From: Verrucomicrobiota bacterium
Lineage (GTDB): Bacteria; Verrucomicrobiota; Verrucomicrobiia; Limisphaerales; CANJSG01
Direction: 5' to 3'
DNA: 58,207 bases
Assembly (NCBI GenBank): GCA_038209745.1
Contig: JBBQXJ010000021.1
Location: 1-58,207, forward strand
Part shown: positions 4,205-46,899 of the stretch, in pieces
How positions within the stretch are numbered: the stretch's first letter is position 1
Layout of the letters: every line of letters begins with the position of its first letter
The notes under the pieces: model-generated
What the model saw: the letters and a program-made list of their open reading frames with translations, nothing else
Told to the model about the DNA's origin: nothing
Database searches by the model: none
Position numbers and translations under genes: made by a program

Positions 4205-4260
4205 GACGGATTCCACCGTGGGGCGTCGGTCGCCCACGGTAAAGGCGGGATCAATCCGCC

Positions 4261-4296
4261 GAAAAGAAAGCGGGCGGATCCAATGGATCCGCCCGC
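4261..4296 (-). terminator. Intrinsic terminator
   Basis: Palindrome GCGGGCGGATCCA-A-TGGATCCGCCCGC followed on the minus strand by TTTCTTTTC, downstream of 4324..6159. Confidence 0.75.
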
Positions 4297-4323
4297 CCCG
4301 ACGATCAAGAAACTGGACCCCGC

Positions 4324-6159: not shown

Positions 6160-6218
6160 GGGTGGTGGTTTGAATCTGGGTGAGGAGGACTGCTCCCGGG
6201 GCCGCCGAAAAGCCGGGG

Positions 6219-7256: not shown

Positions 7257-7298
7257 CGCCGTATTGCCCGGACTCCCGGCTGGTTCTAGCTTCTGCGC

Positions 7299-7601
7299 AT
7301 GGCGGATTCCGCATCACCGGTCGTCGACCCGGACGAGACGACGAAAGAAAAGCCGGCCGAGTCCCATGACTTCGGCTGGAGCGTCGTCGTCTGGAACGAT
7401 CCCGTGAACTTCATGGAGTTCGTCACCCACGTCTTCATGAACGTCTTTCGCTGGCCCAAACCGAAGGCCGAGAAACACATGCTCGAAGTCCACGAAAAGG
7501 GCCGCAGCGTCGTCGCCCAGGCCGGCTTCGAGAAAGCCGAGCACTACGTCCACCTCCTGCAGGGCTACTCGCTCCACGCCACCCTGGAGAAGGTCGGATG
7601 A
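7299..7601 (+). CDS. clpS: ATP-dependent Clp protease adaptor ClpS
   Basis: WNDPVNFMEFVT...MLEVHEKGRSVV motif; 100 aa. Confidence 0.93.
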   Translation: MADSASPVVDPDETTKEKPAESHDFGWSVVVWNDPVNFMEFVTHVFMNVFRWPKPKAEKHMLEVHEKGRSVVAQAGFEKAEHYVHLLQGYSLHATLEKVG

Positions 7602-8095
7602 AGCTTCTGCACCGGAACGACGAAACCTTGGGCGTCCAATGGAGCCACACTGAAAAGCGGCTCCTCGACGCCCTTGCGGAAACCTATCCCCTCCACCAGC
7701 CCGAAGAGCAGCCGCTCAGCCGGGAACCCTCCGATCTCCCGGACGGGGCGGAATCCTGGCTCCATGCCGCCCGCTCGGAAGAACTGAACCAGAACCGCGC
7801 CTGGCTGGGAGACCTCGTCCGTTCGGACCGCTTCCAACCGTCCGAGCAAGGCTGGCGGCAGGAACTGACCCATCCCGAAGTCGAGACCCTTCTGCAAATC
7901 CTGAACAACATCCGGGTCGGCGCCTGGGCCCGGCTCGGCTGCCCGGAAATCCTGCCCACTCTGGCGGATCTGCTCAAAGGGGGCGCGGATCGCAACGCCT
8001 GGCTGATGAAGCTGGCCGGCGAGCTCCAGATCGGTCTTCTGCTCGCCCTCGATGCGACCCTCGACGGGGAAGACACGGCACCGCCCGCCGAATGA
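7598..8095 (+). CDS. Hypothetical protein, DUF2017-like
   Basis: ATGA overlaps with both clpS and aat. LNNIRVGAWARLG resembles the actinobacterial DUF2017 protein that follows clpS. Confidence 0.65.
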   Translation: MKLLHRNDETLGVQWSHTEKRLLDALAETYPLHQPEEQPLSREPSDLPDGAESWLHAARSEELNQNRAWLGDLVRSDRFQPSEQGWRQELTHPEVETLLQILNNIRVGAWARLGCPEILPTLADLLKGGADRNAWLMKLAGELQIGLLLALDATLDGEDTAPPAE

Positions 8096-8769
8096 CCCCA
8101 CCGCTCCAGCCGCGTTTCCCTGATCCCCGGGACCTGCCGCCGGGCCAGCGCGCCGCTTCCCCCGTTGCCGCCGGAGGCGATCTTTCGCCCGCTTGTCTCC
8201 GGGAAGCCTATCGTCTCGGAATGTTCCCTTGGACCGAAGATCCCGTCACCTGGTGGTCGCCCGATCCGCGCGGCCTGCTGGAACTCGACCGGTTGCATGT
8301 CTCCCGCAGCCTGGCGCGCACCCTGCGACGGGATCCCTTCAAGGTGACGGTCGACGGGGCCTTTCCCGAGGTCGTCGCCGCCTGCGCCGTGGAACATCGG
8401 AAAGGCGGCGACTGGATCACGGCCGGATTCCAAGCCGCCTACTCCGAACTCCACCGGCTCGGCCACGCCCACAGCGTCGAATGCTGGCAGGAAGGCCGTC
8501 TCGTCGGCGGCATCTACGGCGTGCATGTGGGCGGTGTCTTCTGCGGCGAATCCATGTTCCACCGGGTGGACGACGCCTCCAAGACGGCGCTCGTCCATCT
8601 CGTGCGCCTTTTGCAGCAGGGCGGCTTCGCCTTCCTCGACGTGCAGATGGTGACCGAAGCGACCCGCCGCCTCGGCGCCGCCGAGGTTCCCCGCTCCGAA
8701 TTCCTCCGGCGCCTGCATGAAGCCCACGACCGACCCGTCCAATTCCCGACCCGGCTCCATCCGGCATGA
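8092..8769 (+). CDS. aat: Leucyl/phenylalanyl-tRNA--protein transferase
   Basis: AYRLGMFPW, WWSPDPR, AHSVECW, GESMF and ASKTAL motifs. Confidence 0.96.
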   Translation: MTPPLQPRFPDPRDLPPGQRAASPVAAGGDLSPACLREAYRLGMFPWTEDPVTWWSPDPRGLLELDRLHVSRSLARTLRRDPFKVTVDGAFPEVVAACAVEHRKGGDWITAGFQAAYSELHRLGHAHSVECWQEGRLVGGIYGVHVGGVFCGESMFHRVDDASKTALVHLVRLLQQGGFAFLDVQMVTEATRRLGAAEVPRSEFLRRLHEAHDRPVQFPTRLHPA

Positions 8770-31786: not shown

Positions 31787-31907
31787 GCCTCCCCCGCCTG
31801 AAGTGTGCCCGCGCCCGATCGGCGGGGGCCTTCCCTTTCCCGGATCCGTCTCCGGGCAACCGCTCCTGTTCCCGTTCCCGATTTCCTCCGTCCTTGCGAC
31901 GGCTTCC

Positions 31908-32558
31908 ATGAAAAACAAGCCACGCGGCTTCACCCTGATCGAACTGCTGGTCGTGATCGCCATCATCGCGATCCTGGCCGGTCTGCTCCTGCCGTCGCTG
32001 GCCAAGGCCAAGGCCCGGGCGACCGCGATCGCCTGCATGTCGAACCTCAAGCAGATCGGCCTCGGCGTCGCCCTGTATACGGGCGACAACGGGGACCAGT
32101 TTCCGCAGTCCTCGCATCAGAGCGCTTCATGGATCGGGAAGCTCCAAGTCTACGGCATCACCAACGTCTACCGTTGCCCCGTCGATCCCGAGAAGACCCG
32201 TCGGACCAGCTTCGCCATCAATGATTTTCTGACCCCGCATCCGTTCGGCGCCAAGGACCTCGACTTCTCCCGGTCGAGCCGCATCCCCGCGCCGAGCGAG
32301 ACGCTCCACTTCGCCGAAGCCACCGTGGACTTCGGCGCCTCGGACCATTTCCACTTCGCCGACGCCCCGATCGAGGGCGTCTCCACGAATGACTTCGCCG
32401 GCCAGGTGGATGTCGTCCGGCATCGCCCGTCCGCGAACTACCTCTTCGCGGACGGGCATGTGGCAAGCCTCCGATGGACGTGGGTCAGCGCCCAGCTTGA
32501 CCGGCCGGGCTCGCGCTTTCTGCGACCCGACGGCCAGGGAGACAACAGCCACCCTTAG
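31908..32558 (+). CDS. Prepilin-type N-terminal cleavage/methylation protein with H-X9-DG motif
   Basis: [28 protein letters not shown] and [15 protein letters not shown]. Confidence 0.93.
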
Positions 32559-32577
32559 GACAATACACAGCGACAAC

Positions 32578-33366
32578 ATGACCACGAAACACCTCGCGCC
32601 GACCCTGCTCGGCCTCGCCTGTCTGGCCACCGCCGCTCAGGCCCACATCACCTACAGCGGCCGCGATCTCGGTTCCTTCACCGGACTCGACGCCTCCGCC
32701 GCCACGATCGCCAACCAGGCCGTCACCGGCAACTTCGGCTGGGCCGACGCCGCCGACTTCAACCTCGGCGACAGCCACAAGGGCCGCGCCTTCCGCTTCC
32801 ATCTGGACAACGCCGCCTCCATCAGCCTGAACGTCTCGGCCAAGGCCGACGCCACCGCTTCCTCCATCGGCGGACTCCTGCCCGGCTTCTCGATCTACCA
32901 GGGTTTGGCCGCCATCGGACCCTTCCTCGGCGCCCAGACCAGCCCCGACCATGACGAGAGCGAAGCCTCCCTCGCGTGGCGCACCACCTGGGCCCAGCAG
33001 AACCTGGGCATGGCCTACGACTACACCGCGACCGACGGCAGCTGGAACGCCACGGGCGATTGGAAGATCGGCGGCGACGGCGACGTGGCGGGCGACGCTT
33101 CCGTGCTCTCCCGCTTCGTCCTGCAAGGCTTCGCCTTCGATGCTGACAAAGACGGCGTGGCCACCGGCACGTTCCAGCTGGCCGCCGGCGACTACACCCT
33201 CTTCGTGGGCGGAAACGACATCGCGAACAAGTTCTCGGCCGATGCCGGGAAGGCCTACGGCGTCTCCGTGGAACTGGCCACCGTGACCCCGGTTCCAGAA
33301 CCCGCCACCGCCGCCCTCGTCGCCACCGGCGTCGGGCTGCTGCTCATGGCGCGGCGCAAGAAATAG
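32578..33366 (+). CDS. PEP-CTERM surface protein
   Basis: Signal peptide (AQA-H) and a C-terminal VPEPATAALVATGVGLLLMARRKK. Confidence 0.92.
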   Translation: MTTKHLAPTLLGLACLATAAQAHITYSGRDLGSFTGLDASAATIANQAVTGNFGWADAADFNLGDSHKGRAFRFHLDNAASISLNVSAKADATASSIGGLLPGFSIYQGLAAIGPFLGAQTSPDHDESEASLAWRTTWAQQNLGMAYDYTATDGSWNATGDWKIGGDGDVAGDASVLSRFVLQGFAFDADKDGVATGTFQLAAGDYTLFVGGNDIANKFSADAGKAYGVSVELATVTPVPEPATAALVATGVGLLLMARRKK

Positions 33367-33375
33367 AGGCCGCCG

Positions 33376-34260
33376 ATGAAATCCACCCGAAGGTTCACCC
33401 CCGCAGCCCTCGCCGCCGCGCTCCTCGCCGCGCTCGTCCTGCCCGCCCGTGCGCACAAGCACCTGGACACCGGCGCGGAGGCACCGACCGTCGGCTCGAA
33501 GCTCTTCTTCCGTAACGGGGCCGGCTACGAAGCCGCATCCGGATTCCTGTATCGCCTCACCCCCACGAACCTCGCCTCCGGTCTCGTCTTCCGCAGCGGC
33601 GACATCTCGCGCGCCGATCCCGACGTCGACAACGACCCGGTCTTCACCTGCCTGCCGGTCGATCCAAACAACGGCGGACCCGAACCGTTCGCGCCGTTGC
33701 TCGGAGCCCGCGTCGCCCTCCAGATCGTCGGCGTCTCCGGTCCGGATGGCGGCGCGCTCTCCTTCTGGAATTCCGACGGCGACTACATCGCGGAGGACAT
33801 CACCTTCACCGTCCCGGTCGGTACGACCCACGGCACGAACGCGTTTTTCCTCAGCGAGAACGACGACTCCCCCGGCAGCGATCCCTACGGCCACATCCAC
33901 GGCCGCCGGTTCAGCGTGGATCTCCCCGGACTCTACACCGTCGACCTTCGTCTCGTGGACGCCACCACCAACGGCCCGGGCCACGGCCCGCTCCACGCCC
34001 CGTCGGCCCTCTTCAAAATGTATTTCCAAGCCGGCACCTCCATCGTGGAACTCGTCCCCTCGCCCGTTGGCAACAACCTCACCTTCGGCACCGAGACCGG
34101 CCGAACCTACTCGGTCGAAAGCACCGGCGAACTCGGTCCCGCCGGCCAATGGACCTCCGTCGGCGACCCCATCGTCGGCAATGGCAAACTCCAAACCGTA
34201 GAAGGGTTGCCCGCCTCGAGCGGTCCGGTCTTCTACCGCCTTCGCATCACCATTCCGTAG
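33376..34260 (+). CDS. Secreted His-containing protein, possibly metal-binding
   Basis: Signal peptide (ARA-HKH), DPYGHIHGRRF..PGLYTV and a C-terminal YSVES..W..FYRL domain. Confidence 0.78.
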   Translation: MKSTRRFTPAALAAALLAALVLPARAHKHLDTGAEAPTVGSKLFFRNGAGYEAASGFLYRLTPTNLASGLVFRSGDISRADPDVDNDPVFTCLPVDPNNGGPEPFAPLLGARVALQIVGVSGPDGGALSFWNSDGDYIAEDITFTVPVGTTHGTNAFFLSENDDSPGSDPYGHIHGRRFSVDLPGLYTVDLRLVDATTNGPGHGPLHAPSALFKMYFQAGTSIVELVPSPVGNNLTFGTETGRTYSVESTGELGPAGQWTSVGDPIVGNGKLQTVEGLPASSGPVFYRLRITIP

Positions 34261-34368: not shown

Positions 34369-34766
34369 TTAGCCGCGTGACGTTCGCCAAAGCATGGGCA
34401 CGCGGCCCCACTGGCGGATGCGCCTGTCGTCATAGACGCGCCGGAGCTTGTGGGCGAGAGCGGTGGCGGCAATGAGCTGATCGGCGGGGACTTTGTGGAA
34501 GCCGGACGCCTCCCAAGCGGTCGCCCGCTCGGCGATGGCGGAGGTGATCGAAAAGACGGTCACTTCTGGGGTGATCGCCAGCCGGAAGAACTCCGAGAGC
34601 GGCACCGACAATTCCAGCCGCCCAGCTCCACCAGTTTGGCCGCTTCACAAAGAGAAATGTCCGCGATGGCCAGAGTGTCGGCAGGTTGGGGGAAGGTTCT
34701 TTCCGCCAGGACGGGCACCGCGCCGCCGAGCGCTCGCTGGATCCAAGCGTGGGTGTCCAACACGCG
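34369..34766 (-). pseudogene. vapC: Frameshifted VapC/PIN toxin
   Basis: LDTHAWI...ISLCEAAKL in one frame and HKVPADQLIAATA in another. One base is missing near 34620. Confidence 0.8.
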
Positions 34767-34767
34767 G

Positions 34768-34936
34768 GTCGCTCCGCCGCCTCCCCATCAAGACCCGTGC
34801 TGAAGAGATCGTCGACGATCTTGCCCTTGCCTTTGAGCGCGCATTGCCAAGAGCGCTTTCAGACCGCTTGGAAGACGAACTCCTCGTCGTCCGACGTGAT
34901 GAAAACCGGATCGCCCGTCGTGGCCCCCGCCTTCAT
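34768..34936 (-). pseudogene. Degenerate Phd/VapB-like antitoxin
   Basis: Reads MKAGATTGDPVFITSDDEEFVFQAV*KRSWQCALKGKGKIVDDLFSTG, with an in-frame TGA at 34859..34861, directly upstream of the PIN remnant. Confidence 0.6.
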
Positions 34937-35056
34937 TCGGCCTCGGCGTTCCCGGCCAATGTCGCCCAGATCGAGGGAAGCCTGAGAAAGTCGGATATTT
35001 CCATCTGAAAGGGCTTACCGTCGAGCGCCGAGCTGGCTAGGTTCCTGCCCTCACGC

Positions 35057-37843
35057 ATGACTCCCGAGGGGAAAGCCCGCCAACAGATCGACGCGCAACT
35101 GGTTGCGAGTGGCTGGCTCGTCCAGGACTACCAGCAGTTCAATCCTTCGGCCGGGCGCGGCATCGCCCTGCGAGAAGCGCCGCTCAAATCCGGCACCTGC
35201 GATTACCTCCTGCTTGTGGACCGGAAAGCCCTGGGTGTGGCCGAGGCCAAAAAGAAAGGCACGTTGCTTTCGGGCGTGGCAGAACAATCCGGCCATTACG
35301 CGGAAAATCTGCCCGATTTCATCCAGTCCATCGCTCCCGGGTCATTGCCGTTCCTTTACGAATCCACCGGCGTCGAAACGTTCTTCCGCGACGAACGTGA
35401 TCCCGCACCGCGTTCCCGCCGCGTCTTTTCGTTCCACCGCCCGGAGACGTTGGCCTCTATGGTGGCCGAACCCACGACTCTCCGCGCCCGCCTCGCGCAG
35501 ATGCCCTTCGGCCATCCGCTCCCGGCCCAGAACCTCAGGGCGTGCCAGGTCGAGAGCATCACCAAGCTGGAACACTCCTTCGCCGCCGCCCATCCCCGCG
35601 CGCTCATTCAGATGGCCACCGGCGCCGGCAAGACCTACACCGCCTGCTCGTTCACCTACCGGCTCATCAAACACGCGGGGGCGAAGCGCGTCCTCTTCCT
35701 CGTCGACCGCGCCAATCTCGGGCGACAAGCCATGGCCGAGTTCCAGCAGTTCGTAGCCCCCGACACCGGTCGCAAGTTCACCGAGGTTTACAACGTCCAG
35801 CACCTCACCTCGAACCAGCTCGATTCCGTCGCCCGCGTCACCATTTGCACGATCCAACGCCTCTACTCGATCCTGCGCGGCGTGGAGCTCGATGAAGATC
35901 TCGACGAAAAGTCCGGCTACGAGATCGCCAGCGCCGACGACAGGCCAAAAGACGTCGCCTACAATCCCGCCGTCCCCATCGAGGCCTTCGATTTCATCGT
36001 CACCGATGAATGCCACCGTTCCATCTATGGCCTCTGGCGGCAGGTGCTCGAATACTTCGACGCCTTCCTTATCGGCCTCACCGCCACGCCCAGCAAGCAG
36101 ACCATCGGGTTCTTCGACCAGAACCTCGTGATGGAATACAACCATGAGCGCGCCGTGGCCGATGGGGTGAATGTCGGCTACGAAGTCTACCGCATCAAAA
36201 CCCGGGTCACCGAACAGGGCGGCACCGTCGAGAAGGGCTTCTATGTGGACCGCCGCAGCAAGGAGACCCGCGCCGTCCGCTGGGAACGGCTCGACGAAGA
36301 CCTCGCCTACGCCGCCAAGGATCTTGATCGTTCCGTCGTGGTGAAGTCCCAGATCCGCACCGTGCTTCAAGCCTTCAAGGACGCGCTCGCCACGGAACTC
36401 TTTCCCGGCCGCACGCTCATCCCGAAGACGCTCATCTTCTGCAAGGACGACTCCCATGCCGAGGACACCGTCCATCTCGTCCGCGAAGTCTTCGGCAAGG
36501 GCAACGACTTCGCCAAGAAGATCACCTACAAGACCTACAACCCCGGGACCAAGCGCTACGAAAAGTCCGAGACGCTCATCCAGGAGTTCCGCACCTCGCC
36601 CCAGCTCCGCGTCGCGGTCACCGTGGACATGATCGCCACCGGCACGGACATCAAGCCGCTGGAATGTCTCCTCTTCCTGCGCGACACCCGCAGCCGCACC
36701 TACTTTGAGCAGATGAAAGGACGCGGCACGCGCGTCCTTACGTCCACCGACTTGCAGGCCGTGAGCGGAGCGGACGCCCACGCCAAGACCCACTTCGTCA
36801 TCGTGGATGCGGTGGGCGTGTGCGAGAGCGACAAGACCGACTCCCGCCCGCTGGAACGCCAGCCCACCATTGCGTTCAACAAGCTCCTGCTCGGCGTGGC
36901 CCTCGGTAAACGCGACGAAGACACCCTCACCACGCTGGCCGGACGCCTTGCCCGGCTCGACCGCGAAATCTCCCGAGACGAAGCCCAGAAGCTCGCCGAA
37001 CTCGCGGGCGGCAAGTCGTTGGCGGAACTCTCCGGGTCACTCCTTCGCGCGATCGATCCCGATGCCATCGCGGAAAAGGCCACCGGGAAACCCGGCGCCT
37101 CACCCGCCGAAGCCACGCCCGAAGCCTTGGACGCCGCCCGCAAAACGTTGGCCGACGCCGCCTGCGCGCCGTTCGATCTGCCCGCCCTCCGCGATGCCCT
37201 TGCCAAGGCCAAGCAGGACGCCGAGCAGACCATCGATGTCACCACCGTCGACACGGTCGTCTCGCAGGGCTTCGACGCTGCCGCCAAGGAAAAGGCGATG
37301 GCGCTCCTCAGTTCCTTCCGTGAATACATCGAGCAGCACAAGGCCGAGATCACCGCGCTCCAGTTGCTCTACTCGCGCCCCTACCAGCAACGCCTCACGG
37401 AAAAGATGCTCAAGGAACTGGAGAAGAAGCTCCAAGAACAGCACGCCGCCTGGACCGAGGACAATCTGTGGGCCGCTTGCGCGGCGGCGAATCCCGGCAA
37501 GGTCAAGGGCCGCTCGCAGGCCGGACGCTTCGCCGACCTCGTCGCGCTCGTCCGCTTCTCATTGGAACAACAGCCCGTGCTCGAACCCTTCGCCGAATCC
37601 GTCACCACGCGCTTCAACGAATGGCTCATGACTAAAGCCCAGACCGGGACGGTCTTCAGCGCCGACCAACTCGCCTGGCTCAACCTCATCCGCGACCACA
37701 TCGCCACCAGCCTGAGCATCGACCCGGAGGATTTTGAATTCGCCCCATTCAACCAGCGCGGCGGACTCGGCAAGGCGCATCAACTGTTCGGCGAGCAACT
37801 GCCCAAGCTGCTCGATGAACTCAACGAGGTGCTCGCGGCATGA
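35057..37843 (+). CDS. hsdR: Type I restriction endonuclease subunit R (EcoEI-like C-terminus)
   Basis: DYLL...EAKK nuclease, MATGAGKT, DECHRS, LTATP and QMKGRGTR helicase motifs. Confidence 0.96.
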   Translation: MTPEGKARQQIDAQLVASGWLVQDYQQFNPSAGRGIALREAPLKSGTCDYLLLVDRKALGVAEAKKKGTLLSGVAEQSGHYAENLPDFIQSIAPGSLPFLYESTGVETFFRDERDPAPRSRRVFSFHRPETLASMVAEPTTLRARLAQMPFGHPLPAQNLRACQVESITKLEHSFAAAHPRALIQMATGAGKTYTACSFTYRLIKHAGAKRVLFLVDRANLGRQAMAEFQQFVAPDTGRKFTEVYNVQHLTSNQLDSVARVTICTIQRLYSILRGVELDEDLDEKSGYEIASADDRPKDVAYNPAVPIEAFDFIVTDECHRSIYGLWRQVLEYFDAFLIGLTATPSKQTIGFFDQNLVMEYNHERAVADGVNVGYEVYRIKTRVTEQGGTVEKGFYVDRRSKETRAVRWERLDEDLAYAAKDLDRSVVVKSQIRTVLQAFKDALATELFPGRTLIPKTLIFCKDDSHAEDTVHLVREVFGKGNDFAKKITYKTYNPGTKRYEKSETLIQEFRTSPQLRVAVTVDMIATGTDIKPLECLLFLRDTRSRTYFEQMKGRGTRVLTSTDLQAVSGADAHAKTHFVIVDAVGVCESDKTDSRPLERQPTIAFNKLLLGVALGKRDEDTLTTLAGRLARLDREISRDEAQKLAELAGGKSLAELSGSLLRAIDPDAIAEKATGKPGASPAEATPEALDAARKTLADAACAPFDLPALRDALAKAKQDAEQTIDVTTVDTVVSQGFDAAAKEKAMALLSSFREYIEQHKAEITALQLLYSRPYQQRLTEKMLKELEKKLQEQHAAWTEDNLWAACAAANPGKVKGRSQAGRFADLVALVRFSLEQQPVLEPFAESVTTRFNEWLMTKAQTGTVFSADQLAWLNLIRDHIATSLSIDPEDFEFAPFNQRGGLGKAHQLFGEQLPKLLDELNEVLAA

Positions 37844-39036
37844 GTCAACTTGGCAAATCATCTGGAACTGGTGGGACGCCTGTGCGCCTCGGCGACATAG
37901 CCAAAGCGCGGATGGGAAAAACAATTCTATCCAAAGAACTCACCGAATCTGGTGTGCCAGTTTATTCTGCGGGTCGAGAAAACGAACCGTGGGGATTTAT
38001 TCCAAATTCCGATCTGCTTTTCGGTGAGGAAACCATTGTTATCGCTGCTCGCGGCAACATCGGTTTTCCTCGCGTGCCGCGAACCACCCCGTTTGTCAGC
38101 ACGCAGACGACAATAGCTATTTCGTTCAAAGATAGTCGGCATGTTCCTTATCTCCGCTACCAACTGGAGACGGTGAATTGGCCTGGAATGACTTCGCAAA
38201 CCACGATTCCAATGGTCACGGTGCGGCAGGTTGAAGGCATCGAAGTTCGACTTCCGACTGTTGACGAGCAGCGGCGGATTGTGGCGGAGGTTGAGAAGCA
38301 ATTCACGCGGCTGGAGGCGGGGGTGGCGGCGTTGCGGCGGGTGCAGGCCAACCTCAAACGCTACCGCGCCGCCGTCCTCAAAGCCGCCTGCGAAGGCCAA
38401 CTCGTCCCCACGGAAGCCGAGTGGCCGCAAAAGCAAATTGCCACCGCGATCCAAACGATGGACCAAGGATGGAGTCCAAAATGTGAAAGCGAACCATCAG
38501 CCGATGACGCGACATGGGCGGTTATCAAAACGACCGCGATTCAAAACCTTCGGTTCGATGAAGTGGAAAACAAGAAGCTTCCAGCCTCACTGAAACCGCG
38601 TCCACACCTCGAACTTCAATCGGGCGATCTGCTTGTGACCCGTGCTGGCCCACGCAATCGGGTCGGCGTCGCGTGCCTCGTTAAAAACACACGACCACGT
38701 TTGATGCTGTGCGACAAAGCGTATCGGCTGCGGTGCAAGCTGAGCGTCGCCCATCCAGCTTTTCTCGAATTGGTCTTGAATGCTCCGCACATCGTTGACG
38801 CGGTGAACAAGCTCAAGACAGGCATCAGTGACAGCGGCGTGAACCTCACCCAAAAGCGATTTGGAGAATTGATTGTCCCGCTTCCACCCCTTGCCGAGCA
38901 GACGCGGATTGTGGCGGAAGTGGAGCGGCGGTTGAGCGTGGTGGTGGAGTTGGAGTCGGTGGTGTCGGCCAACCTCCAGCGCGCCACCCGCCTCCGCCAG
39001 TCCATCCTCCAGAAAGCCTTCACCGGGCAGTTGTGA
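37840..39036 (+). CDS. hsdS: Type I R-M specificity subunit S
   Basis: Two lower-GC TRDs, each followed by a P...EQ.RIVAEVE conserved helix; ends QSILQKAFTGQL. Confidence 0.95.
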   Translation: MSQLGKSSGTGGTPVRLGDIAKARMGKTILSKELTESGVPVYSAGRENEPWGFIPNSDLLFGEETIVIAARGNIGFPRVPRTTPFVSTQTTIAISFKDSRHVPYLRYQLETVNWPGMTSQTTIPMVTVRQVEGIEVRLPTVDEQRRIVAEVEKQFTRLEAGVAALRRVQANLKRYRAAVLKAACEGQLVPTEAEWPQKQIATAIQTMDQGWSPKCESEPSADDATWAVIKTTAIQNLRFDEVENKKLPASLKPRPHLELQSGDLLVTRAGPRNRVGVACLVKNTRPRLMLCDKAYRLRCKLSVAHPAFLELVLNAPHIVDAVNKLKTGISDSGVNLTQKRFGELIVPLPPLAEQTRIVAEVERRLSVVVELESVVSANLQRATRLRQSILQKAFTGQL

Positions 39037-39061
39037 TGCACGTTTACTCCTCCGGGCACGC

Positions 39062-40060
39062 ATGGCAGGGTCCAACACGGTCAACAAACCGCCAACCAAG
39101 ACCCGAGCCGTGAAACTGATCGAAAGGACAATTGAATTGAGCGCGGCCGAAGGACTCGGGCCGAGGCCGCGTCCTGAATTGATCGGGCCGGTCTTCACAC
39201 ACCTGCACGACACGCTCCAAGATGCGGTGAGGATGGGTTTCCTCTATTCCAGCCGGGCTCGCGGGCGGATACCTGCCTGCCTGAAGGCGGCGGCGGCGGT
39301 TCACTATCGGGGCCATTCCGCCAACCAGGCCGGATCAACGCTCCTGCACTTTGAGGTGCCTTCGTTCGCGAGCGTTGCGGGCGAGTTGTTCGAGCAAAAG
39401 CTGCTTTGGAAGGAGGGACCGAAACCCGAGCAGACCGCATTTGAACTGCTCGGAGCCGCGTTGAACGATGTCCGCAAGCGCCAGAAGGAAAGCAACCGGT
39501 TCGACCGTGGCTTGCTTCAGCGGGTCAGGGGCTACCGCCATATTCTCAAACGCGGCATCACCCGGATCGGCTTGCCGGATGCCGACCTTGAAGAACCGAG
39601 CGAAATTGACCAGATCGCGGTCGACGCGGCATCGGAACTCTGTGCTGCAACACCCACGCCTCGCCGGGTTCGAGTGGCGGGACGCTTGGACCTGATGGCT
39701 GCGAAACAGTCCGTGCTCAAGGTCGATGTGAAGGAAGGCGTGTTTGTCACGGCCGTTTGGGAAGGAGCGGAGCCGGTCGAGACATTGAGGGACTACTTCA
39801 ACCGGGATGTCGTAATCGAAGGTGTCGGTGTATTCCGTCCTTCGGGTTCTTTGCTGCGAATCGATGCGGATGCCATCGCCGTCGCCGGCGTTCAAGACGA
39901 GTTCTTCCGCCAATTGCCTACGGCACTCGTTGCTCCCGACTATAAAGCGATGGTCCGACTCAGGCCCGGCGAACAGTCGCCGTTCAACCGGATTCTCGGC
40001 AGCATTCCGGCAGAGGAATCCGACGACGAGTTTGCCGACGCCGTCGAGGCGTTCAGCTAA
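39062..40060 (+). CDS. Hypothetical protein with predicted OB-fold-like region and acidic C-terminal tail (candidate PIN partner)
   Basis: 332-aa ORF inside the hsd operon. It has a VAGRL...DVVIEG beta-rich segment and the tail GSIPAEESDDEFADAVEAFS. An alternative GTG start lies at 39110. Confidence 0.75.
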   Translation: MAGSNTVNKPPTKTRAVKLIERTIELSAAEGLGPRPRPELIGPVFTHLHDTLQDAVRMGFLYSSRARGRIPACLKAAAAVHYRGHSANQAGSTLLHFEVPSFASVAGELFEQKLLWKEGPKPEQTAFELLGAALNDVRKRQKESNRFDRGLLQRVRGYRHILKRGITRIGLPDADLEEPSEIDQIAVDAASELCAATPTPRRVRVAGRLDLMAAKQSVLKVDVKEGVFVTAVWEGAEPVETLRDYFNRDVVIEGVGVFRPSGSLLRIDADAIAVAGVQDEFFRQLPTALVAPDYKAMVRLRPGEQSPFNRILGSIPAEESDDEFADAVEAFS

Positions 40061-40063
40061 GGC

Positions 40064-40522
40064 ATGAGCGCGGTGCAAGGCTACCTCTTGGACACGAACA
40101 TCGTGCTCCATGCCACGCGTGAGAACAGTCCGGTGCAACTGGCCGTAAACGCTCAGTTTCGGCTCCGTTCATCTGCGTTCAGACCGACAATCTGCGAAGT
40201 GACCGTGGCGGAATTGTGGTCCTTCGCCGAGTCGTGGGGAGCGAAGCGCAGGGAATTGCTGATGCGGATGATTGGAGACTTGCTGGTGTTGCCAATCAGC
40301 GATTCCCGCATTCACACGCGTTGGGCCGAGCTTCATTCCTTTGCGCGCTCGAAAGGCATGGCGATTCAGCACGACCACAACGACGTTTGGATTTCCGCAG
40401 TGGCCCATGTCGCCGGTTTGAAATTGATTTCGACCGACGTTGCAGCGTTTCTGCCATTGCGTGGAACACCGTGGGTGGATGTCGTCGTGCTTGATCCGAA
40501 GACAGGAATCATTGTTCCGTGA
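40064..40522 (+). CDS. PIN-domain (VapC-like) ribonuclease
   Basis: YLLDTN, TVAEL, NDVWISA and LISTD: all four acidic catalytic positions are present. Confidence 0.9.
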   Translation: MSAVQGYLLDTNIVLHATRENSPVQLAVNAQFRLRSSAFRPTICEVTVAELWSFAESWGAKRRELLMRMIGDLLVLPISDSRIHTRWAELHSFARSKGMAIQHDHNDVWISAVAHVAGLKLISTDVAAFLPLRGTPWVDVVVLDPKTGIIVP

Positions 40523-41997
40523 GCAACCCCAGCGCCCTCGTCCAGAAACTCTGGAATTATTGCAACATTCTCCGCGATGACGGTTTGTCCTACGGCGATT
40601 ATGTGGAGCAGTTGACCTTTCTGCTGTTCCTCAAGATGGCGGATGAGCAGTCGCGCCCGCCGTTCAACAGGCCCAGTGCTGTGCCCAAGGAGTTCGCCTG
40701 GCCGAGCCTGCTGGCGCGCGATGGCGACGAGTTGGAGACGCATTACCGGCATGTGCTCGAATCGCTAGGCAAACAGAAGGGCATGCTCGGCGTCATCTTC
40801 CGCAAGGCGCAGAACAAAATCCAGGACCCGGCCAAGTTGCGCCGGCTCATCGTGGACCTGATTGATAAAGAGCAGTGGTCGAGCCTGTCCGCCGACGTGA
40901 AGGGCGACGCCTACGAGGGGTTGCTGCAAAAGAACGCCGAGGACGTGAAAGGCGGCGCGGGGCAATATTTCACGCCACGCCCGCTCATCGCGGCGATGGT
41001 GGAGGTCGTCGCCCCGCATCCGAACCAGACGATCTGTGACCCGGCGTGCGGCACGGGCGGGTTTCTGCTGGCGGCGCATGATTTCATCGCGCGAACGCCG
41101 GGCCTGGACAAGGCGCAGAAGAAGCGGCTCAGGAACGGCACGCTCTTCGGCATCGAACTGGTGGACAGCGTCACGCGGCTCTGCGCGATGAATCTGCTGC
41201 TGCACGGCATCGGCGGCGCGGATGGCGACATCCCGATTTCCGACGCCGACCTTCCGGTCGTGACCAAGGACGCGCTGGCCGGGAAGCATGGCGAGTATGA
41301 AATCGTGCTGGCCAATCCGCCGTTCGGTAAAAAGAGCAGCGTGACCATCGTCAACGAGGCGGGCGAGCAGTCGAAGGAATCGCTCACCATCAACCGCGAC
41401 GATTTCTGGGCGAGCACCAGCAACAAGCAGCTCAACTTCCTCCAGCACATCTTCACCATCCTCAAGCAGCACGGGCGCGCGGCGGTGGTGTTGCCGGACA
41501 ACGTGCTGTTTGAAGGCGGCGCGGGCGAAACCATCCGGCGCGAACTGCTCAAGCAGGCGGACGTGCATACGCTCTTGCGCCTGCCCACCGGCATCTTCTA
41601 CGCGCAAGGCGTGAAGGCGAACGTGCTGTTCTTCGACCGCAAACCGGCGCAGGAAAAGCCGTGGACGGAAAAGCTTTGGATTTACGACCTGCGCACGAAC
41701 AAGCACTTCACCCTCAAGGAAAGCACCCTCAAGCGCACGGACCTCGATGACTTCGTGGCGTGCTACAATCCGAAGGACCGGCACAAGCGTGAGGAGAGCG
41801 GCCGGTTCAAGGCGTTCACCTACGACGAACTGACGAAACGCGACAAGGTGAACCTGGACATCTTCTGGCTGAAAGACGACGCGCTGGAAGACTCGGCAAA
41901 CCTTCCTGCGCCGGAAGTGATCGCTACGGACATTGCCGCCGATCTGGAAGCGGCGTTGGAGCAGTTCGCGACGATTGCAGACGATCTAAAGGCCTAG
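40519..41997 (+). CDS. hsdM: Type I R-M N6-adenine methyltransferase subunit M
   Basis: GQYFTPR, DPACGTGGFL, NPPF and LRLPTGIFY motifs. Confidence 0.97.
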   Translation: MSNPSALVQKLWNYCNILRDDGLSYGDYVEQLTFLLFLKMADEQSRPPFNRPSAVPKEFAWPSLLARDGDELETHYRHVLESLGKQKGMLGVIFRKAQNKIQDPAKLRRLIVDLIDKEQWSSLSADVKGDAYEGLLQKNAEDVKGGAGQYFTPRPLIAAMVEVVAPHPNQTICDPACGTGGFLLAAHDFIARTPGLDKAQKKRLRNGTLFGIELVDSVTRLCAMNLLLHGIGGADGDIPISDADLPVVTKDALAGKHGEYEIVLANPPFGKKSSVTIVNEAGEQSKESLTINRDDFWASTSNKQLNFLQHIFTILKQHGRAAVVLPDNVLFEGGAGETIRRELLKQADVHTLLRLPTGIFYAQGVKANVLFFDRKPAQEKPWTEKLWIYDLRTNKHFTLKESTLKRTDLDDFVACYNPKDRHKREESGRFKAFTYDELTKRDKVNLDIFWLKDDALEDSANLPAPEVIATDIAADLEAALEQFATIADDLKA

Positions 41998-42227
41998 GAA
42001 GGCGGAGGACTAATCCGAGCCTCAAAAACGGGACGATGCCGCCGAACCGCCTGACATTCCAGTGTTGGGTCGATGAGGGCAGGTGCTCGGCCAGGCCATT
42101 CCTTGGTATCTTCTCTTTGGATGCTCCCGGGCTGTTTTGGTGCGAATCGCTGACGACTTCTGATAAACTGACGTGGATCATAATCACCCCGCCATCACTG
42201 ATTTGATGACGGTTTAGCCGGACCGTC

Positions 42228-42450
42228 GCAGTGGGGATTGTGGAGAGCGCCCGCCCCGGGCGCAGTGGGCCGCGCCTTCACGGTCCATCGGAAGCGCTGG
42301 AAACGATTCACCTCCTGCTGTGTCCGGACGCTTCAGTGTCCGGCGCGGGCCGCGCCGGACGGAAGCCGGGGCGGCTGCGATCCCCATTCATTTCCACTGC
42401 CTCGTTCCGGCCGAGGACTGTGGGGGGATTTGGGCCGCCCCCCCTATTTT
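42228..42450 (+). ncRNA. Candidate structured non-coding RNA of unknown family with terminator-like 3' hairpin
   Basis: 10-bp closing stem 42231..42240/42378..42387 with two G-U pairs, internal hairpins 42247..42263 and 42338..42360, and a G6/C7 hairpin plus TATTTT at 42422..42450. Confidence 0.4.
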
Positions 42451-42456
42451 CGGTCA

Positions 42457-42491
42457 AAGGCCGGTGCTCTATCCAACTGAGCTGCGGGTGC
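42457..42491 (-). pseudogene. 5' half of a tRNA (Arg-like), no 3' half
   Basis: GCACCCG CA GCTC AGTTGGATA GAGC A CCGGC CTT gives the acceptor 5' strand, an intact D-arm and the anticodon 5' strand. U8 is replaced by C. Confidence 0.7.
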
Positions 42492-42963
42492 AGTGGGTCT
42501 CCAACTCCGGAAAGAGAGTTCGGTGTCGGGTTGCCTTCGATGGAGCGAGACTGGTTCCGAGGTCGGGTGCGAGAGCCGTTCGGGATTGATCGGTTCATCA
42601 ACCGGAATCCCGACGAGGAATCGGGTCGAACCCAGATAAACAGGATGAAGGAGCCTGTATTTTTACACAACGCGCCTGCGAGCTTGCAAGCGCCTGAAGG
42701 TTGCTTGCGAAACCCAAGTTTGCGGACAACTCTCGCATCAACCCACCAAGCCATAACGCCGATGTTCGCATCACTATGCTTTCAGATCTGTTGATCGTCC
42801 GGATCGATCCGGATTCATCGGTCGCGGCTTGCCGGAATGGCGGGGCAATTGCGGCGGCATCTTGCAAAGGAGTTTCCGTTTTCTCCGTGTTCCAATGTTC
42901 CTTCCGTGGAAGCCCTCTTCCGGGGCCGTCATCGGCGGGGCCCGTCTGATCCATCCACTCCCT

Positions 42964-45900
42964 ATGAGTTCCATCACTTCGTTTGCCTTCGACAGTCGTT
43001 CGGGTGCGTCGCGGGGTTCCTGTTCACGTGGGCGTGGCCCGTGGCGAGCCGGGCTCGCGATCGTGTTGTGGGCGCTCTTCGGTTCGGGGGGGCCGGCGCA
43101 GGCGCAGGTCAACGTGCTGATGCACCACTACGACCTGATGCGGCACGGGGCGAATCTCGCGGAAACGGAGCTCGCGCCCACCAACGTCAGCTCCGCCGTC
43201 TTCGGCAAGGTCTTCTCCCACCCGGTGGACGGCTATGTCTATGCCCAGCCCCTCGTCCTGACAGGCGTCGCCGTGCCGGGGAAGGGAGTGCATGACTTGG
43301 TCTTCGTGGCGACCGAGCATGACACCGTCTACGCGTTCGACGCGAACGACTCCGGCGGCGACAACGGACAACCGTTGTGGACGACGAGTTTCATCAATCC
43401 GGCCGCGGGCATCACCACCGTGCCGACGGCCGATGTGGGGAGCGGCGACATCGTCCCGGAGATCGGGATCACCAGCACCCCGACGATCGACGCCGCCACG
43501 GGGACGATCTTCGTGGAGGTGAAAACCAAGGAGCCGGGAACCAAATACGTGCACCGCCTCCACGCCCTGGATGTCGCCACGGGCCTCGAACGGCCCGGCA
43601 GCCCGGTGGTCCTCAATGCCACGGTGAAGGGCACGGGCGACGGCAACAACGGCGCGGGCCTGGTGCCCTTCAATTCGCTCCGGCAGATGAACCGAAGCAG
43701 CCTCGCGCTGTTCCAGCCGGCCGGCCAGTCCAACGCGCTCGTCTATATCGCCTTCGCCTCCCATGGCGACAACGGGCCCTATCACGGCTGGGTCCTGGGC
43801 TACGACTCCGTGACGCTCGCCCTGAAGCAGTTCTACAACACGACCCCGAACGGCGGTCTCGGCGGGATCTGGATGGGCGGGCTCGGGCCCGCGTTCGACG
43901 ATGCCGGCAATCTCTACGCGATCACCGGGAACGGCACGTTCGCGCCCGCTTCGAAGAGCTACGGCGACACGTTCCTGAAGATCTCGACCGGTGGGACAAA
44001 CCTCGCCCTTGCGGACTATTTCACCCCCTTCAACCAGGCCGCGCTCAACTCGGCCGACGCGGATCTCGGCTCGGGCGGCGTCTTGATCCTGCCCGACGAG
44101 GTCGGCAGCGTGGCCCATCCGCACCTGCTGGTGGGCTGCGGCAAGGAGGGGAAGATCTACCTGCTCGACCGCGACAATCTCGGCCAGTTCAACGCGGCCA
44201 GCGACTCGCAGATCGTGCAGTCGCTCCCGGGCTTGATCGCCGGCACCTGGGGCACGCCCGCCTATTTCAAAAAACGCCTCTACTACGTCGGCTCCGGCGA
44301 CGCGATCAAACTGCTGCCCTTCGCCAACGGCAAGTTGACCGGGACGGTGCAGAGCCAGACCGCCAACGGCTTCGGCTATCCCGCCGGCACGCCGAGCATC
44401 TCCGCCAACGGCGCCACGAACGGCATCGTCTGGGCGATCGACGCGGGCGCCTACGGGAGCAGGGGACCGTCCGTGCTCCATGCCTACGACGCGGAAAACC
44501 TGGGCAAGGAGCTCTACAACAGCGGCCAGATGGGCAGCCGCGACGTGCCGGGACCCGCCGTCAAATTCACGACGCCCACCGTGGCCAACGGCAAGGTCTT
44601 CATCGGTTCCGCCAATTCCTTGGCGGTCTACGGCCATGGCCAATGGGTCGCCGCACCGACGATCTCCCCGTCCAGCGGCAACTTCACGACCTCGATCCAG
44701 GTCGCGCTGGCGGACGCCACGCCCGGCGCCGTGATCCGCTACACGGTGGATGGTTCGGATCCGACGGCGGCTTCGCCGGCCTACGGCGCTCCGCTCGTCT
44801 TCACCACCACCACAGGACTCAAGGTCCGGGCGTTCAAGGCGGGCTCCGTGGACAGCGCGGTGGTGGTGGCGACCTTTTTCAACGGCAGCTCGATCGGCCA
44901 GGGTTCCGGGCTGAAGGGCGAGTATTTCTCGAACCACGCCAAGGTCTTCACGGGCACTCCCACGCTCACCCGGATCGACCCCATGGTGAACTTCGACTGG
45001 GGCAACGGCTCTCCCGATCCAAGCATTTCGGCCGACACGTTCACGGTCCGCTGGACCGGCCAGGTCCAGGCGCAGTTCTCCGAGCCCTACACCTTCACCA
45101 CGACTTCGGACGACGGCGTGCGCCTCTATGTGAACGGGACCCTGGTCATCGACCAATGGATCGACCAGGGCCCGACGGACTGGACCGGGACGATCGCGCT
45201 CCAAGCCGGCCAGCTCTACGACATCCGGATGGAGTATTACGAAAACGGCGGCGGAGCCGTCGCCAAGCTGGCCTGGAGCAGCCCGTCCACCGCGCAGGCG
45301 ATCATCCCGACCAACCAGCTTTATCCTCCGAACCAGCTGCCGACCGTCTCCATCGTCTCGCCCTCGTCCGGCGCGTCCGTCGCCGGTCCGGCCAGCGTGA
45401 CGGTGGTCGCAAACGCCACCGATGGCGACGGCACGGTGGCCAAGGTGCAGTTCTTCGACGGAACGACGCTGCTGGGTTCCCTGAGCAACGCTCCCTACGC
45501 CCTCACCGTCACTCGACTGGCTGTGGGCGGCCATACCCTGACCGCCTTGGCCATCGACAACCGCAAGGGCACCAACCGTTCGGCGGCGGTCGTCTTGAAC
45601 GTCGCCGCCGGGAGCGGCAACCGGTTCGGCCTGACGACGCGGCCCCAGTCCCAGCCCTACTTCGGACTGCCGCCGGACACGTCCTCGCCCCTGCCCGCGC
45701 TGTTGTCGCAGACGGGCGTTTTCGCCGACATGGCAACGCTCGCGCCCGCCACCGGACTGATGCCCTACACGGTCAACGTGCCCTTCTGGTCGGACGGGGC
45801 GCTCAAGCAGCGCTGGATGATCGTGCCCTATGACGGCGGCGCCCTGCGTCCGGCGCAACAGGTCCAATTCTCCTCCGAGACGAACTGGGTGTTCCCGGCG

Positions 45901-46899
45901 GGTTCGGTCTTCGTGAAGCACTTCGATCTTCAGACCAACGAAACCGACCTGGCCGCCGTGCGCCGACTGGAGACCCGCATCCTCATCGAAAGCACGAACG
46001 GAATCGTCCGCGGAGCCACCTACCGTTGGCGGGCCGATTACAGCGACGCTGATCGCGTCACCAACGCCACAACCGAGAACATCGTCGTCACGACGGCTGC
46101 CGGCAGCCGCATCCAGCCGTGGTATTATCCGAGTCCGACGGACTGCGTCACCTGCCACACCCCGCAGTCGGGCGGCGTGCTGGGTGCCTCGACGGCCCGG
46201 CAGTTGAACGGGAACCTCCTCTACCCCGGCAGCGGCGAGACGGACAACCAATTGCGCACGCTGAATTCCGTGGGTCTGTTCTATCCGGCTCTGGACGAGG
46301 CGGCCCTGGCTGGATACGCCCGTCTGGCCAAGGCGGACGACACCACCGCGACGCTGGATCTCAGGGCGAGATCGTTCCTCGACGTCAATTGCGCCTACTG
46401 TCACCAGCCCACCGGCGTCCGGGCGAACTTCGACGCCCGCTTCACCACGCCGCTGGCGTCGTCCGGCATCATCAACGGAGCGGTCATCGCGAACCTCGGC
46501 GTGGTCGGAACCCATGTCGTCACCGCCGGCGACCCGTTGCGCTCGGCCATGCTGCAACGGGTGGCGAGCACCGCGCCGCTGGTCAAGATGCCCCCGCTGG
46601 CCCGCAACCAGGAGGACACGGTCGCGGCCGACTTGCTCCAAGCCTGGATCGACAGCCTGGTAGGACCGGCCCCGCTGCTTGGCGCAGCCCGTTCGAATGG
46701 CGCCGCCGTCTTCTCCTGGACGTTCGACAGTTCGGTGGCCAACGGCGGAAATTTCTACCTGGAATTGGCCAACCACCTCGGCCCGGACGCGGTGTGGGCG
46801 GCAGGCCCCGCACCGGCGACCAACGGAACCCAACGCACCGTCATCGTCACCCCGGCCGGCACCGAGCTGTATGGCCGGCTGAACAGCCAGCCGCAGTGA
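42964..46899 (+). CDS. Large secreted modular protein: PQQ-like propeller, chitobiase/FN3-associated domain, PA14, Ig-like domain, di-heme cytochrome c
   Basis: AQAQ signal cleavage; DADLGSGG; IRYTVDGSDPT; FTVRWTG..SDDGVRL (PA14); PFWSDGA, CVTCH, CAYCH and KMPPL. The start is uncertain (ORF open from 42829). Confidence 0.88.
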   Translation: MSSITSFAFDSRSGASRGSCSRGRGPWRAGLAIVLWALFGSGGPAQAQVNVLMHHYDLMRHGANLAETELAPTNVSSAVFGKVFSHPVDGYVYAQPLVLTGVAVPGKGVHDLVFVATEHDTVYAFDANDSGGDNGQPLWTTSFINPAAGITTVPTADVGSGDIVPEIGITSTPTIDAATGTIFVEVKTKEPGTKYVHRLHALDVATGLERPGSPVVLNATVKGTGDGNNGAGLVPFNSLRQMNRSSLALFQPAGQSNALVYIAFASHGDNGPYHGWVLGYDSVTLALKQFYNTTPNGGLGGIWMGGLGPAFDDAGNLYAITGNGTFAPASKSYGDTFLKISTGGTNLALADYFTPFNQAALNSADADLGSGGVLILPDEVGSVAHPHLLVGCGKEGKIYLLDRDNLGQFNAASDSQIVQSLPGLIAGTWGTPAYFKKRLYYVGSGDAIKLLPFANGKLTGTVQSQTANGFGYPAGTPSISANGATNGIVWAIDAGAYGSRGPSVLHAYDAENLGKELYNSGQMGSRDVPGPAVKFTTPTVANGKVFIGSANSLAVYGHGQWVAAPTISPSSGNFTTSIQVALADATPGAVIRYTVDGSDPTAASPAYGAPLVFTTTTGLKVRAFKAGSVDSAVVVATFFNGSSIGQGSGLKGEYFSNHAKVFTGTPTLTRIDPMVNFDWGNGSPDPSISADTFTVRWTGQVQAQFSEPYTFTTTSDDGVRLYVNGTLVIDQWIDQGPTDWTGTIALQAGQLYDIRMEYYENGGGAVAKLAWSSPSTAQAIIPTNQLYPPNQLPTVSIVSPSSGASVAGPASVTVVANATDGDGTVAKVQFFDGTTLLGSLSNAPYALTVTRLAVGGHTLTALAIDNRKGTNRSAAVVLNVAAGSGNRFGLTTRPQSQPYFGLPPDTSSPLPALLSQTGVFADMATLAPATGLMPYTVNVPFWSDGALKQRWMIVPYDGGALRPAQQVQFSSETNWVFPAGSVFVKHFDLQTNETDLAAVRRLETRILIESTNGIVRGATYRWRADYSDADRVTNATTENIVVTTAAGSRIQPWYYPSPTDCVTCHTPQSGGVLGASTARQLNGNLLYPGSGETDNQLRTLNSVGLFYPALDEAALAGYARLAKADDTTATLDLRARSFLDVNCAYCHQPTGVRANFDARFTTPLASSGIINGAVIANLGVVGTHVVTAGDPLRSAMLQRVASTAPLVKMPPLARNQEDTVAADLLQAWIDSLVGPAPLLGAARSNGAAVFSWTFDSSVANGGNFYLELANHLGPDAVWAAGPAPATNGTQRTVIVTPAGTELYGRLNSQPQ

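Follow-up and report, generated by a model that had tools for sequence, protein, structure and literature searches.

A PIN nuclease gene and an undescribed three-part partner form a likely toxin–antitoxin or phage-defence module, mostly within operons for type I restriction–modification

The window analysed here is a 58,207-nt stretch of DNA from a Verrucomicrobiota bacterium (contig JBBQXJ010000021.1, assembly GCA_038209745.1). Within a type I restriction–modification (R-M) operon it carries two adjoining genes, one encoding a protein without a family name, hereafter X, and one encoding a PIN-domain nuclease, hereafter PIN. Judged from sequence comparisons, X and PIN likely constitute a toxin–antitoxin (TA) or phage-defence module, and the novelty would lie in a putative PIN toxin module whose three-part partner is undescribed. 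Our preferred reading, which we hold tentatively and with slightly less than even confidence, is a mobile VapC-type toxin module in which X acts as a new, sensor-like inhibitor. The two genes and their parts are as follows, with residue numbers of X following the 332-aa open reading frame (ORF):

39062-40060, + strand: X, longest ORF, ATG at 39062, 332 aa, no family match
39110-40060, + strand: X, probable form, GTG at 39110, 316 aa
39110-39655, + strand: N-terminal alpha/beta domain of X, residues 17-198, isoelectric point 8.6, slightly basic
39656-39916, + strand: OB-fold domain of X, residues 199-285
39917-40009, + strand: disordered linker of X, residues 286-316, with a conserved LRPGE motif
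40010-40057, + strand: acidic C-terminal tail of X, residues 317-332, AEESDDEFADAVEAFS
40064-40522, + strand: PIN, 152 aa, VapC-like PIN-domain nuclease, PF01850
40091-40093, + strand: PIN catalytic residue D10, acidic tetrad
40211-40213, + strand: PIN catalytic residue E50, acidic tetrad
40382-40384, + strand: PIN catalytic residue D107, acidic tetrad
40436-40438, + strand: PIN catalytic residue D125, acidic tetrad

Relatives of the pair were collected by their similarity to X (11 loci came from the genomes of species representatives, and 80 were the best of 152 metagenome matches), and merging X sequences of >97% identity gave 75 non-redundant groups. By tblastn, a PIN gene directly followed X in all 11 genome loci and in 77 of the 82 sources with at least 200 nt past X, the window counted. 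After merging, PIN adjoined X in 62/65 groups with room for it, so the consistent pairing on which a preliminary description of this cassette depended does hold. The five exceptions among the 82 comprised one frameshifted PIN (L006), one locus with tandem copies (L069) and three with X alone (L027, L058, L082). The tandem copies lie upstream of hsdR, with X at 4204-5208 and PIN at 5212-5673, then X at ~6001-6948 and PIN at 6952-7413. In two of the lone-X loci a convergent pair of small genes on the minus strand stands in for PIN; as judged by eye, the pair looks MazF/PemK-like in L027 (7229-8034), and in L058 (7103-8274) it would encode a DUF433 protein and a small protein resembling PIN.

Spacing between the two genes was tight. 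The X stop and PIN start were 0-8 nt apart in 71/74 measurable loci, most commonly 3-4 nt, and in the window the TAA of X (40058-40060) is separated from the ATG of PIN (40064) by 'ggc', a gap of 3 nt. A single locus (L030, 936-2354) carries an in-frame X-PIN fusion of 473 aa, where the end of the X tail has been replaced (…AAAVVNEE-MSASKGYLLDT…); this fusion may be genuine or may reflect a stop codon affected by a sequencing error. Across 44 non-redundant pairs, pairwise identity in X correlated with that in PIN (r = 0.74; reached by 0/2000 Mantel permutations), and this co-divergence indicates that the genes travel as a unit. Mean pairwise identity was higher for X (61%) than for PIN (51%), which suggests a constrained activity proper to X. 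Purifying selection acts on both genes, the ratio of non-synonymous to synonymous substitution rates (dN/dS) against eight relatives being ~0.03-0.12, values that are approximate since dS is saturated. The arrangement was found in dozens of independent contigs and is therefore not a product of chance.

PIN matched PF01850 at 1.4e-8 (35.8 bits, cut-off 23.6) and fell below the VapC equivalog cut-offs of NCBIfam (NF047863, 29.4 bits against 140; NF047959, 23.5 bits against 80). In an alignment of 32 sequences from related loci, D10, E50 and D125 were invariant and D107 nearly invariant, in agreement with the initial observation that PIN keeps all four acidic residues. Its closest solved relatives by sequence were 3dbo_B (E 6.8e-4), deposited in the PDB under the title 'Uncharacterized protein' and which we take to be the M. 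tuberculosis VapBC-5 entry, and 6nkl, 'Ribonuclease VapC' (E 0.069). Given the conserved tetrad and the solved VapC relatives, PIN is predicted to be a catalytically competent VapC-type nuclease.

PIN was broken or missing in about ten loci in which X was intact, and an internal stop within X occurred in only 1/91 loci. In L007 (PIN at 7965-8420), TGG is changed to TGA at the invariant Trp58, and L051 and L056 are identical on separate contigs; the simplest account is a nonsense mutation that became fixed in a single lineage. Further nonsense codons (L022, L026), internal deletions (L017, L047) and frameshifts (L006, L034) were observed, three further loci had no recognisable PIN start, and PIN was gone from the lone-X loci L027, L058 and L082. 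Such asymmetric decay is the pattern expected of a harmful downstream gene and a protective or useful upstream gene.

The partner of this nuclease is predicted to consist of two folded domains, a linker and a tail (whole-X model: predicted local distance difference test score (pLDDT) 80.9, predicted template modelling score (pTM) 0.74). The N-terminal alpha/beta domain holds a near-invariant motif, VRMGFLHSSRARGR, and residues 17-200 modelled alone with AlphaFold2 gave a pLDDT of 89.3 and a pTM of 0.88. No chain reached Z>=5 for this domain in VIA wide (best Z 4.7, a SEA domain), and the best Foldseek match in the PDB was unconvincing (E 0.027 at a template modelling score (TM) of 0.16); these failed PDB fold searches do not establish a new fold. 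Its best match in BFVD was an uncharacterised protein of Leptospira phage LE1 (E 0.012, TMq 0.58). In VIA wide, residues 199-281 matched 115 PDB chains at Z>=5, the best being 4dam_A (Z 7.3, root-mean-square deviation 4.0, 80 residues aligned). The matches listed were mostly SSB (single-stranded DNA-binding protein), RPA, PriB, Stn1/Ten1 and the N-domains of aminoacyl-tRNA synthetases, with a few other small beta domains, and Foldseek returned the anticodon-binding domain of lysyl-tRNA synthetase (LysRS; E 6.7e-3, prob 1.00). The region is thus modelled as a five-stranded oligonucleotide/oligosaccharide-binding (OB) barrel, an assignment to fold class only at Z<8, and the beta-rich, OB-like stretch suspected beforehand is recovered by both model and fold searches. 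By sequence, X belongs to neither the SSB nor the tRNA_anti families (Pfam; PDB profile search).

Between the OB fold and the tail, pLDDT drops below 50 at residues 287-300 and 314-316. The sequence GSIPAEESDDEFADAVEAFS occupies residues 313-332, and the tail proper (317-332) counts seven acidic residues and lacks basic ones (net charge -7), with a helix at 321-331 in the model. Its D, F and A positions were invariant in 20 diverse homologues and the motif EESDEEFxAAVEA is kept across the family, so the acidic tail noticed at the outset is both present and conserved. We propose that it may be a PIN-binding or regulatory element. Searching a profile of the tail against solved structures gave chance hits only (E>=0.11), and Pfam matched 0 families in the 20 tail segments.

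Twenty-three of the 29 aligned homologues begin at the position of residue 17 of the 332-aa ORF, and most homologues listed are 314-318 aa long. X therefore probably starts at GTG 39110 and is 316 aa long; the 332-aa ORF of the preliminary description exists, and it is its start that needs revision. A word-indexed search found 522 relatives; among the 120 listed, none has a Pfam domain or is named anything but 'hypothetical protein'. Clustered at 50%, the family comprised 847 representative clusters at E<=1e-3 (583 at E<=1e-10), most full-length representatives being ~315 aa and the listed names reading 'hypothetical protein' throughout. All ESM Atlas clusters listed were labelled 'hypothetical protein', most commonly from Actinomycetota and Bacteroidota. 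X is present in several phyla and was found in 2/401 genomes sampled from the phylum, that of the window counted, a patchy distribution of X-PIN that is typical of mobile accessory genes. Among viral contigs, 22 pattern matches yielded 0 relatives.

Searches against family models were consistently negative. X had no match at E<=0.1 in Pfam, NCBIfam or PADLOC v2.0.0 (2023 models) and none in PHROGs. Thirty X homologues searched against Pfam at E<=1 gave no consistent family, only three single-member chance hits, and a whole-X profile searched against solved structures gave one chance match (E 1.1). Neither X nor PIN matched PADLOC at E<=0.1, and the PIN family was the sole above-cut-off Pfam match of PIN. 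The pair is thus still unmatched to a named system in the PADLOC v2.0.0, Pfam, NCBIfam and PHROGs models. In the portion of the full-text literature available the X family and its architecture are undescribed, and supplements such as Supplementary Figure S7 of PMC5499597 and the NetFlax datasets of PMC10440598 could hold the pair.

One candidate assignment was rejected. DUF6575 occurs, according to the available part of PMC9519451, in one E. coli protein with validated defence activity, and weak leads connected it with X (BFVD E 0.047, prob 0.72, TMq 0.37; Atlas cosine 0.78). The PF20215 hidden Markov model found nothing in the 30 X homologues (E<=1), nor in the genome of the window or the 401 genomes of the phylum; the control genomes were unmatched too.

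In the ORF list of the window, the order is hsdR-hsdS-X-PIN-hsdM, all on the + strand, the remaining genes of the operon being:

35057-37843, + strand: hsdR, 928 aa, type I restriction subunit, EcoAI/EcoEI (type IB-like) family
37840-39036, + strand: hsdS, 398 aa, specificity subunit
40519-41997, + strand: hsdM, 492 aa, methyltransferase subunit

HsdR matched EcoEI_R_C (9.6e-39) and ResIII (1.6e-35) in Pfam, REase_I (5.1e-56) in PADLOC and, below cut-off, PRK11448 (7.3e-120) in NCBIfam. HsdS matched Methylase_S in two stretches (Pfam, 7.8e-18) and Specificity_I (PADLOC, 2.6e-55), and HsdM matched N6_Mtase (1.2e-67) and HsdM_N (5.1e-13) in Pfam and MTase_I (5.7e-192) in PADLOC. The hsdS start overlaps the hsdR stop by 4 nt, and 73 nt separate hsdS from X if X begins at GTG 39110. 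At the far end of the cassette ('ccGTGAgc'), the GTG of hsdM (40519) overlaps the TGA of PIN (40520-40522), and the coordinates of L012-L017 and L089 imply the same 4-nt overlap. Gene order, the 3-nt gap and the GTGA overlap, all reported previously, can be read directly in the sequence.

GC content is 0.58-0.62 at 38-43 kb and 0.65-0.69 on both flanks, which suggests that this is acquired DNA. The low-GC stretch spans hsdS-X-PIN-hsdM and an 830-nt gene-poor stretch (41998-42828). A promoter and terminator scan of 34600-42500 gave site counts not above those of shuffled sequence, and tRNA and Rfam scans around the operon and at the edges of the low-GC island found none. Just upstream of hsdR, on the minus strand (34369-34763), lies a second PIN gene that is broken by a frameshift; its 67-aa ORF (34560-34763) begins MLDTHAW and its 80-aa ORF (34369-34611) hits PF01850 over the model's C-terminal half (E 1e-5). 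The flanks (31803-34260 and 42829-46899) hold typical Verrucomicrobiota or Planctomycetota genes unrelated to the cassette, including a prepilin-type N-methyl/DUF1559-like protein, a PEP-CTERM protein and a 1356-aa PA14/Big_7 surface protein.

Association with type I R-M systems extended well beyond the window. With HsdR, HsdS and HsdM as tblastn queries, an hsd gene was found near the pair in 42/75 groups, many of them on short contigs, and hsd genes flanked it in 15/19 groups with at least 2.5 kb on each side, in keeping with the proposed enrichment in type I R-M operons and defence islands. hsdS lay immediately upstream of X in 14 groups, and the next-gene match began within 60 nt of the end of the PIN match for hsdM in seven groups and for hsdR in six. 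Two HsdR families occur at these loci. Those of the EcoEI_R_C type, the window included, have the order hsdR-hsdS-X-PIN-...-hsdM, and those of the HSDR_N/SWI2_SNF2/T1RH-like_C type have ...hsdS-X-PIN-hsdR; one complete genome of the window's class has hsdR-hsdM-hsdS-?-X-PIN. In a quick IQ-TREE run, X clades followed the HsdR family, the HSDR_N label requiring 3 changes versus 11.5 in shuffles (0/500 matched).

The slot between hsd genes carries further cargo, including an OLD-family ATPase with a UvrD helicase, GmrSD, TIR-STING, Macro, AbiEi and YhcG/DUF1016, as well as DUF3800, SLFN/AlbA_2 regulators, Fic and DUF488. In individual X-PIN operons we observed a TIR plus prokaryotic-STING effector (L014, 3821-4786), an OLD/DUF2813 ATPase with a UvrD helicase (L063, 2013-5671) and a GmrSD-like protein (L068, 7284-9485). 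HsdM N-terminal fragments lie on either side of X-PIN in L004 (6500-6991 and 8287-8739) and short hsdM-like and hsdS-like remnants precede X in L001 (660-860), which suggests insertion or exchange of the cassette by recombination within the hsdM 5' end or the hsdS 3' end.

Four of the well-flanked groups had no hsd gene found and non-defence neighbours:

L002: Omp85 / flavodoxin reductase
L003: phosphoglycerate kinase / 6-phosphogluconate dehydrogenase
L020: pyruvate dehydrogenase E1 / lactate permease
L024: TonB receptor / response regulator

For L002, L003 and L020, whose X-PIN copies show 74-85% identity, no hsd gene was found within 6-7 kb. These three are nested inside the R-M-associated X clade that holds the window, from which it follows that X-PIN left R-M operons repeatedly and survived. 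Given two HsdR families, a different operon order and four loci with no hsd gene found, X-PIN appears able to stand alone.

In our preferred reading, X-PIN would be an autonomous, horizontally mobile two-gene module that is mostly lodged in the cargo slot of type I R-M operons. PIN would be a VapC-type, Mg-dependent RNase that, if toxic and directed at RNA as we suppose, would arrest translation when free. X would keep PIN inactive by direct binding, most plausibly through the invariant acidic C-terminal helix carried on the flexible linker, and regulation or sensing would fall to the OB fold and N-terminal domain. Once a signal of nucleic-acid or phage origin is bound, or X is lost, PIN would be freed and growth arrest or abortive infection would follow. 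The role of X as inhibitor is argued by the antitoxin-first gene order, by the 3-4-nt spacing and by the small ORFs of the window, which offer no other antitoxin candidate beside PIN; the L030 fusion, the co-divergence of the two genes and the asymmetric decay of PIN point the same way.

Several observations weigh against this reading. The DNA-binding folds of classical VapB are missing from X, which is about four times as large. Antitoxins usually evolve faster than their toxins, and the greater conservation of X relative to PIN fits an enzyme, a sensor or a cofactor better than a plain inhibitor. The acidic tail persists intact in the three lone-X loci; its purpose may therefore be something other than PIN, or else PIN may have been lost there recently. 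Only one instance of the fusion was observed, and proteins of 554-2000 aa gave no others, itself weak evidence. As the loci were picked by X similarity, they are biased toward intact X over broken PIN, and some PIN frameshifts may be metagenome assembly errors. A further counter-example is DS-5, identified with DefensePredictor and, in the available part of its report, a validated anti-phage system made of a PIN RNase and a DUF5830/AcrIF4-like partner; there, deletion of the partner abolishes defence without releasing toxicity, so the partner is needed for defence and is not an antitoxin (PMC13092281). The size, fold and conservation of X and the tail retained in lone-X loci lead us to favour a sensor-inhibitor over a plain antitoxin. 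Quite unlikely, in our estimate, is that X is an SSB-like nucleic-acid sensor whose acidic tip would plug the active site of PIN at rest and be withdrawn on binding of single-stranded DNA (ssDNA) or RNA by the OB and N-terminal domains, whereupon PIN would fire. The ssDNA or RNA would come from infection or from translocation and cutting by the type I enzyme and, if this were true, restriction would be coupled to abortive infection without contact with Hsd proteins.

A different role for X would be that of an obligate cofactor or targeting subunit, its OB fold bringing a nucleic-acid substrate or activating ssDNA to a PIN that is inert or auto-inhibited alone; both proteins would be needed, much as the accessible text describes for DS-5. 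We regard this as unlikely. In its favour, X is larger and more conserved than PIN, has an OB fold closest to the N-domains of LysRS and AspRS and to SSB, and lacks antitoxin-type DNA-binding domains, and DS-5 itself sets the precedent of a partner whose deletion costs defence and releases no toxicity (PMC13092281, as far as available). However, repeated inactivation or loss of PIN beside an intact X would be unexpected of a harmless PIN, with which X should decay too, gene order and 3-4-nt spacing are typical of antitoxin–toxin pairs, and the DUF5830 of DS-5 is missing from X (0/30 at E<=1). X-PIN could instead be a simple cassette for addiction or stabilisation, a selfish TA pair that would ride in mobile R-M operons and islands and stabilise them, with no part in sensing phage. 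Its patchy occurrence (2/401 genomes) in unrelated contexts, the tandem duplication, the frequent decay of the toxin and the GC content of the hsd region below that of its flanks would all suit such an element, as would the coupling of TA-type PIN genes to type I R-M subunits noted in the accessible part of a survey (PMC5499597). Nevertheless, a highly conserved, three-domain OB partner of 316 aa exceeds what neutralisation needs, the pair is strongly concentrated in a slot carrying proven defence cargo, and none of the 22 viral-contig pattern matches was a relative; we consider this explanation improbable.

More doubtful still is that X-PIN guards the R-M system, being silenced by HsdMS or HsdR and firing when Ocr, ArdA or Stp disables the enzyme. 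The pair does lie within hsd operons in 15/19 well-flanked groups, is closely coupled to the next gene (hsdM within 60 nt in seven groups, hsdR in six) and has X clades that track the HsdR family (3 versus 11.5 changes; 0/500 shuffles). Precedents also exist in the parts of the reports available, where PrrC is an RNase whose gene is embedded in a type I hsd operon and provides back-up immunity (PMC12707154), and Ronin combines RonA, a toxic effector that is a 61-aa membrane peptide, with an HsdMS decoy in the absence of hsdR (bioRxiv 10.1101/2023.04.06.535777). A PrrC-like dependence on the R-M complex, entertained in the preliminary description, is nonetheless weakened by the two HsdR families, which differ in domain content, by the different operon order and by the four loci with no hsd gene found, among them the L002, L003 and L020 copies (74-85% identity) that sit among non-defence genes with no hsd found within 6-7 kb; lone X also persists, and PrrC domains are absent.

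Back-up immunity genes, PrrC and Ronin among them, have already come from the cargo slot of type I R-M operons, and X-PIN is a frequent occupant of that slot in environmental bacteria (847 clusters, several phyla). Its larger protein has no family name, no PADLOC match and one domain unmatched in PDB searches. If X is indeed a sensor-inhibitor of a VapC-type RNase, it would represent a new antitoxin or sensor architecture and a tractable model for the activation of a PIN toxin during infection; if the pair is an addiction cassette only, it would still be a large unannotated family that deserves a name.

Compared with known systems, X-PIN most resembles VapBC in having a PIN/VapC-like nuclease with an acidic tetrad, a partner immediately upstream at a gap of 3-4 nt, a mobile and patchy distribution and a toxin that often decays. 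It differs in its 316-aa partner, with an N-terminal domain, OB fold and acidic tail at about four times the size of VapB. X also has no ribbon-helix-helix, AbrB, Phd/YefM or helix-turn-helix domain (0/30 members match at E<=1), is more conserved than the toxin, and is paired with a PIN far below the NCBIfam VapC equivalog cut-offs. With PrrC/EcoprrI and RloC, as described in the available parts of their reports, it shares an RNase gene in a type I hsd operon and possible back-up abortive infection. Its effector is a PIN and not an ABC-ATPase/HEPN-type anticodon nuclease, however, and it is a two-gene unit that occurs with two HsdR families and also outside R-M loci. A survey of the PIN superfamily describes, in its available part, PIN genes of the TA type that are coupled to subunits of type I R-M systems (PMC5499597). 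As in Ronin, an effector gene is tightly linked to hsdS and hsdM, whereas the window has an intact 928-aa hsdR and a soluble effector, the 152-aa PIN with its 316-aa partner. DS-5, which could be compared by its available description only, is likewise a two-gene PIN system with a larger partner unlike a classical antitoxin, but its DUF5830 occurred in 0/30 X homologues (Pfam, E<=1). Finally, the C-terminal 130 residues of X resemble SSB in having an OB fold followed by a disordered linker and then an acidic tip. The tip of SSB ends in DDDIPF, whereas X has the tail EESDEEFxAAVEA and adds a 180-residue N-terminal domain. By analogy, this SSB-like layout would fit a regulated, protein-binding tail.

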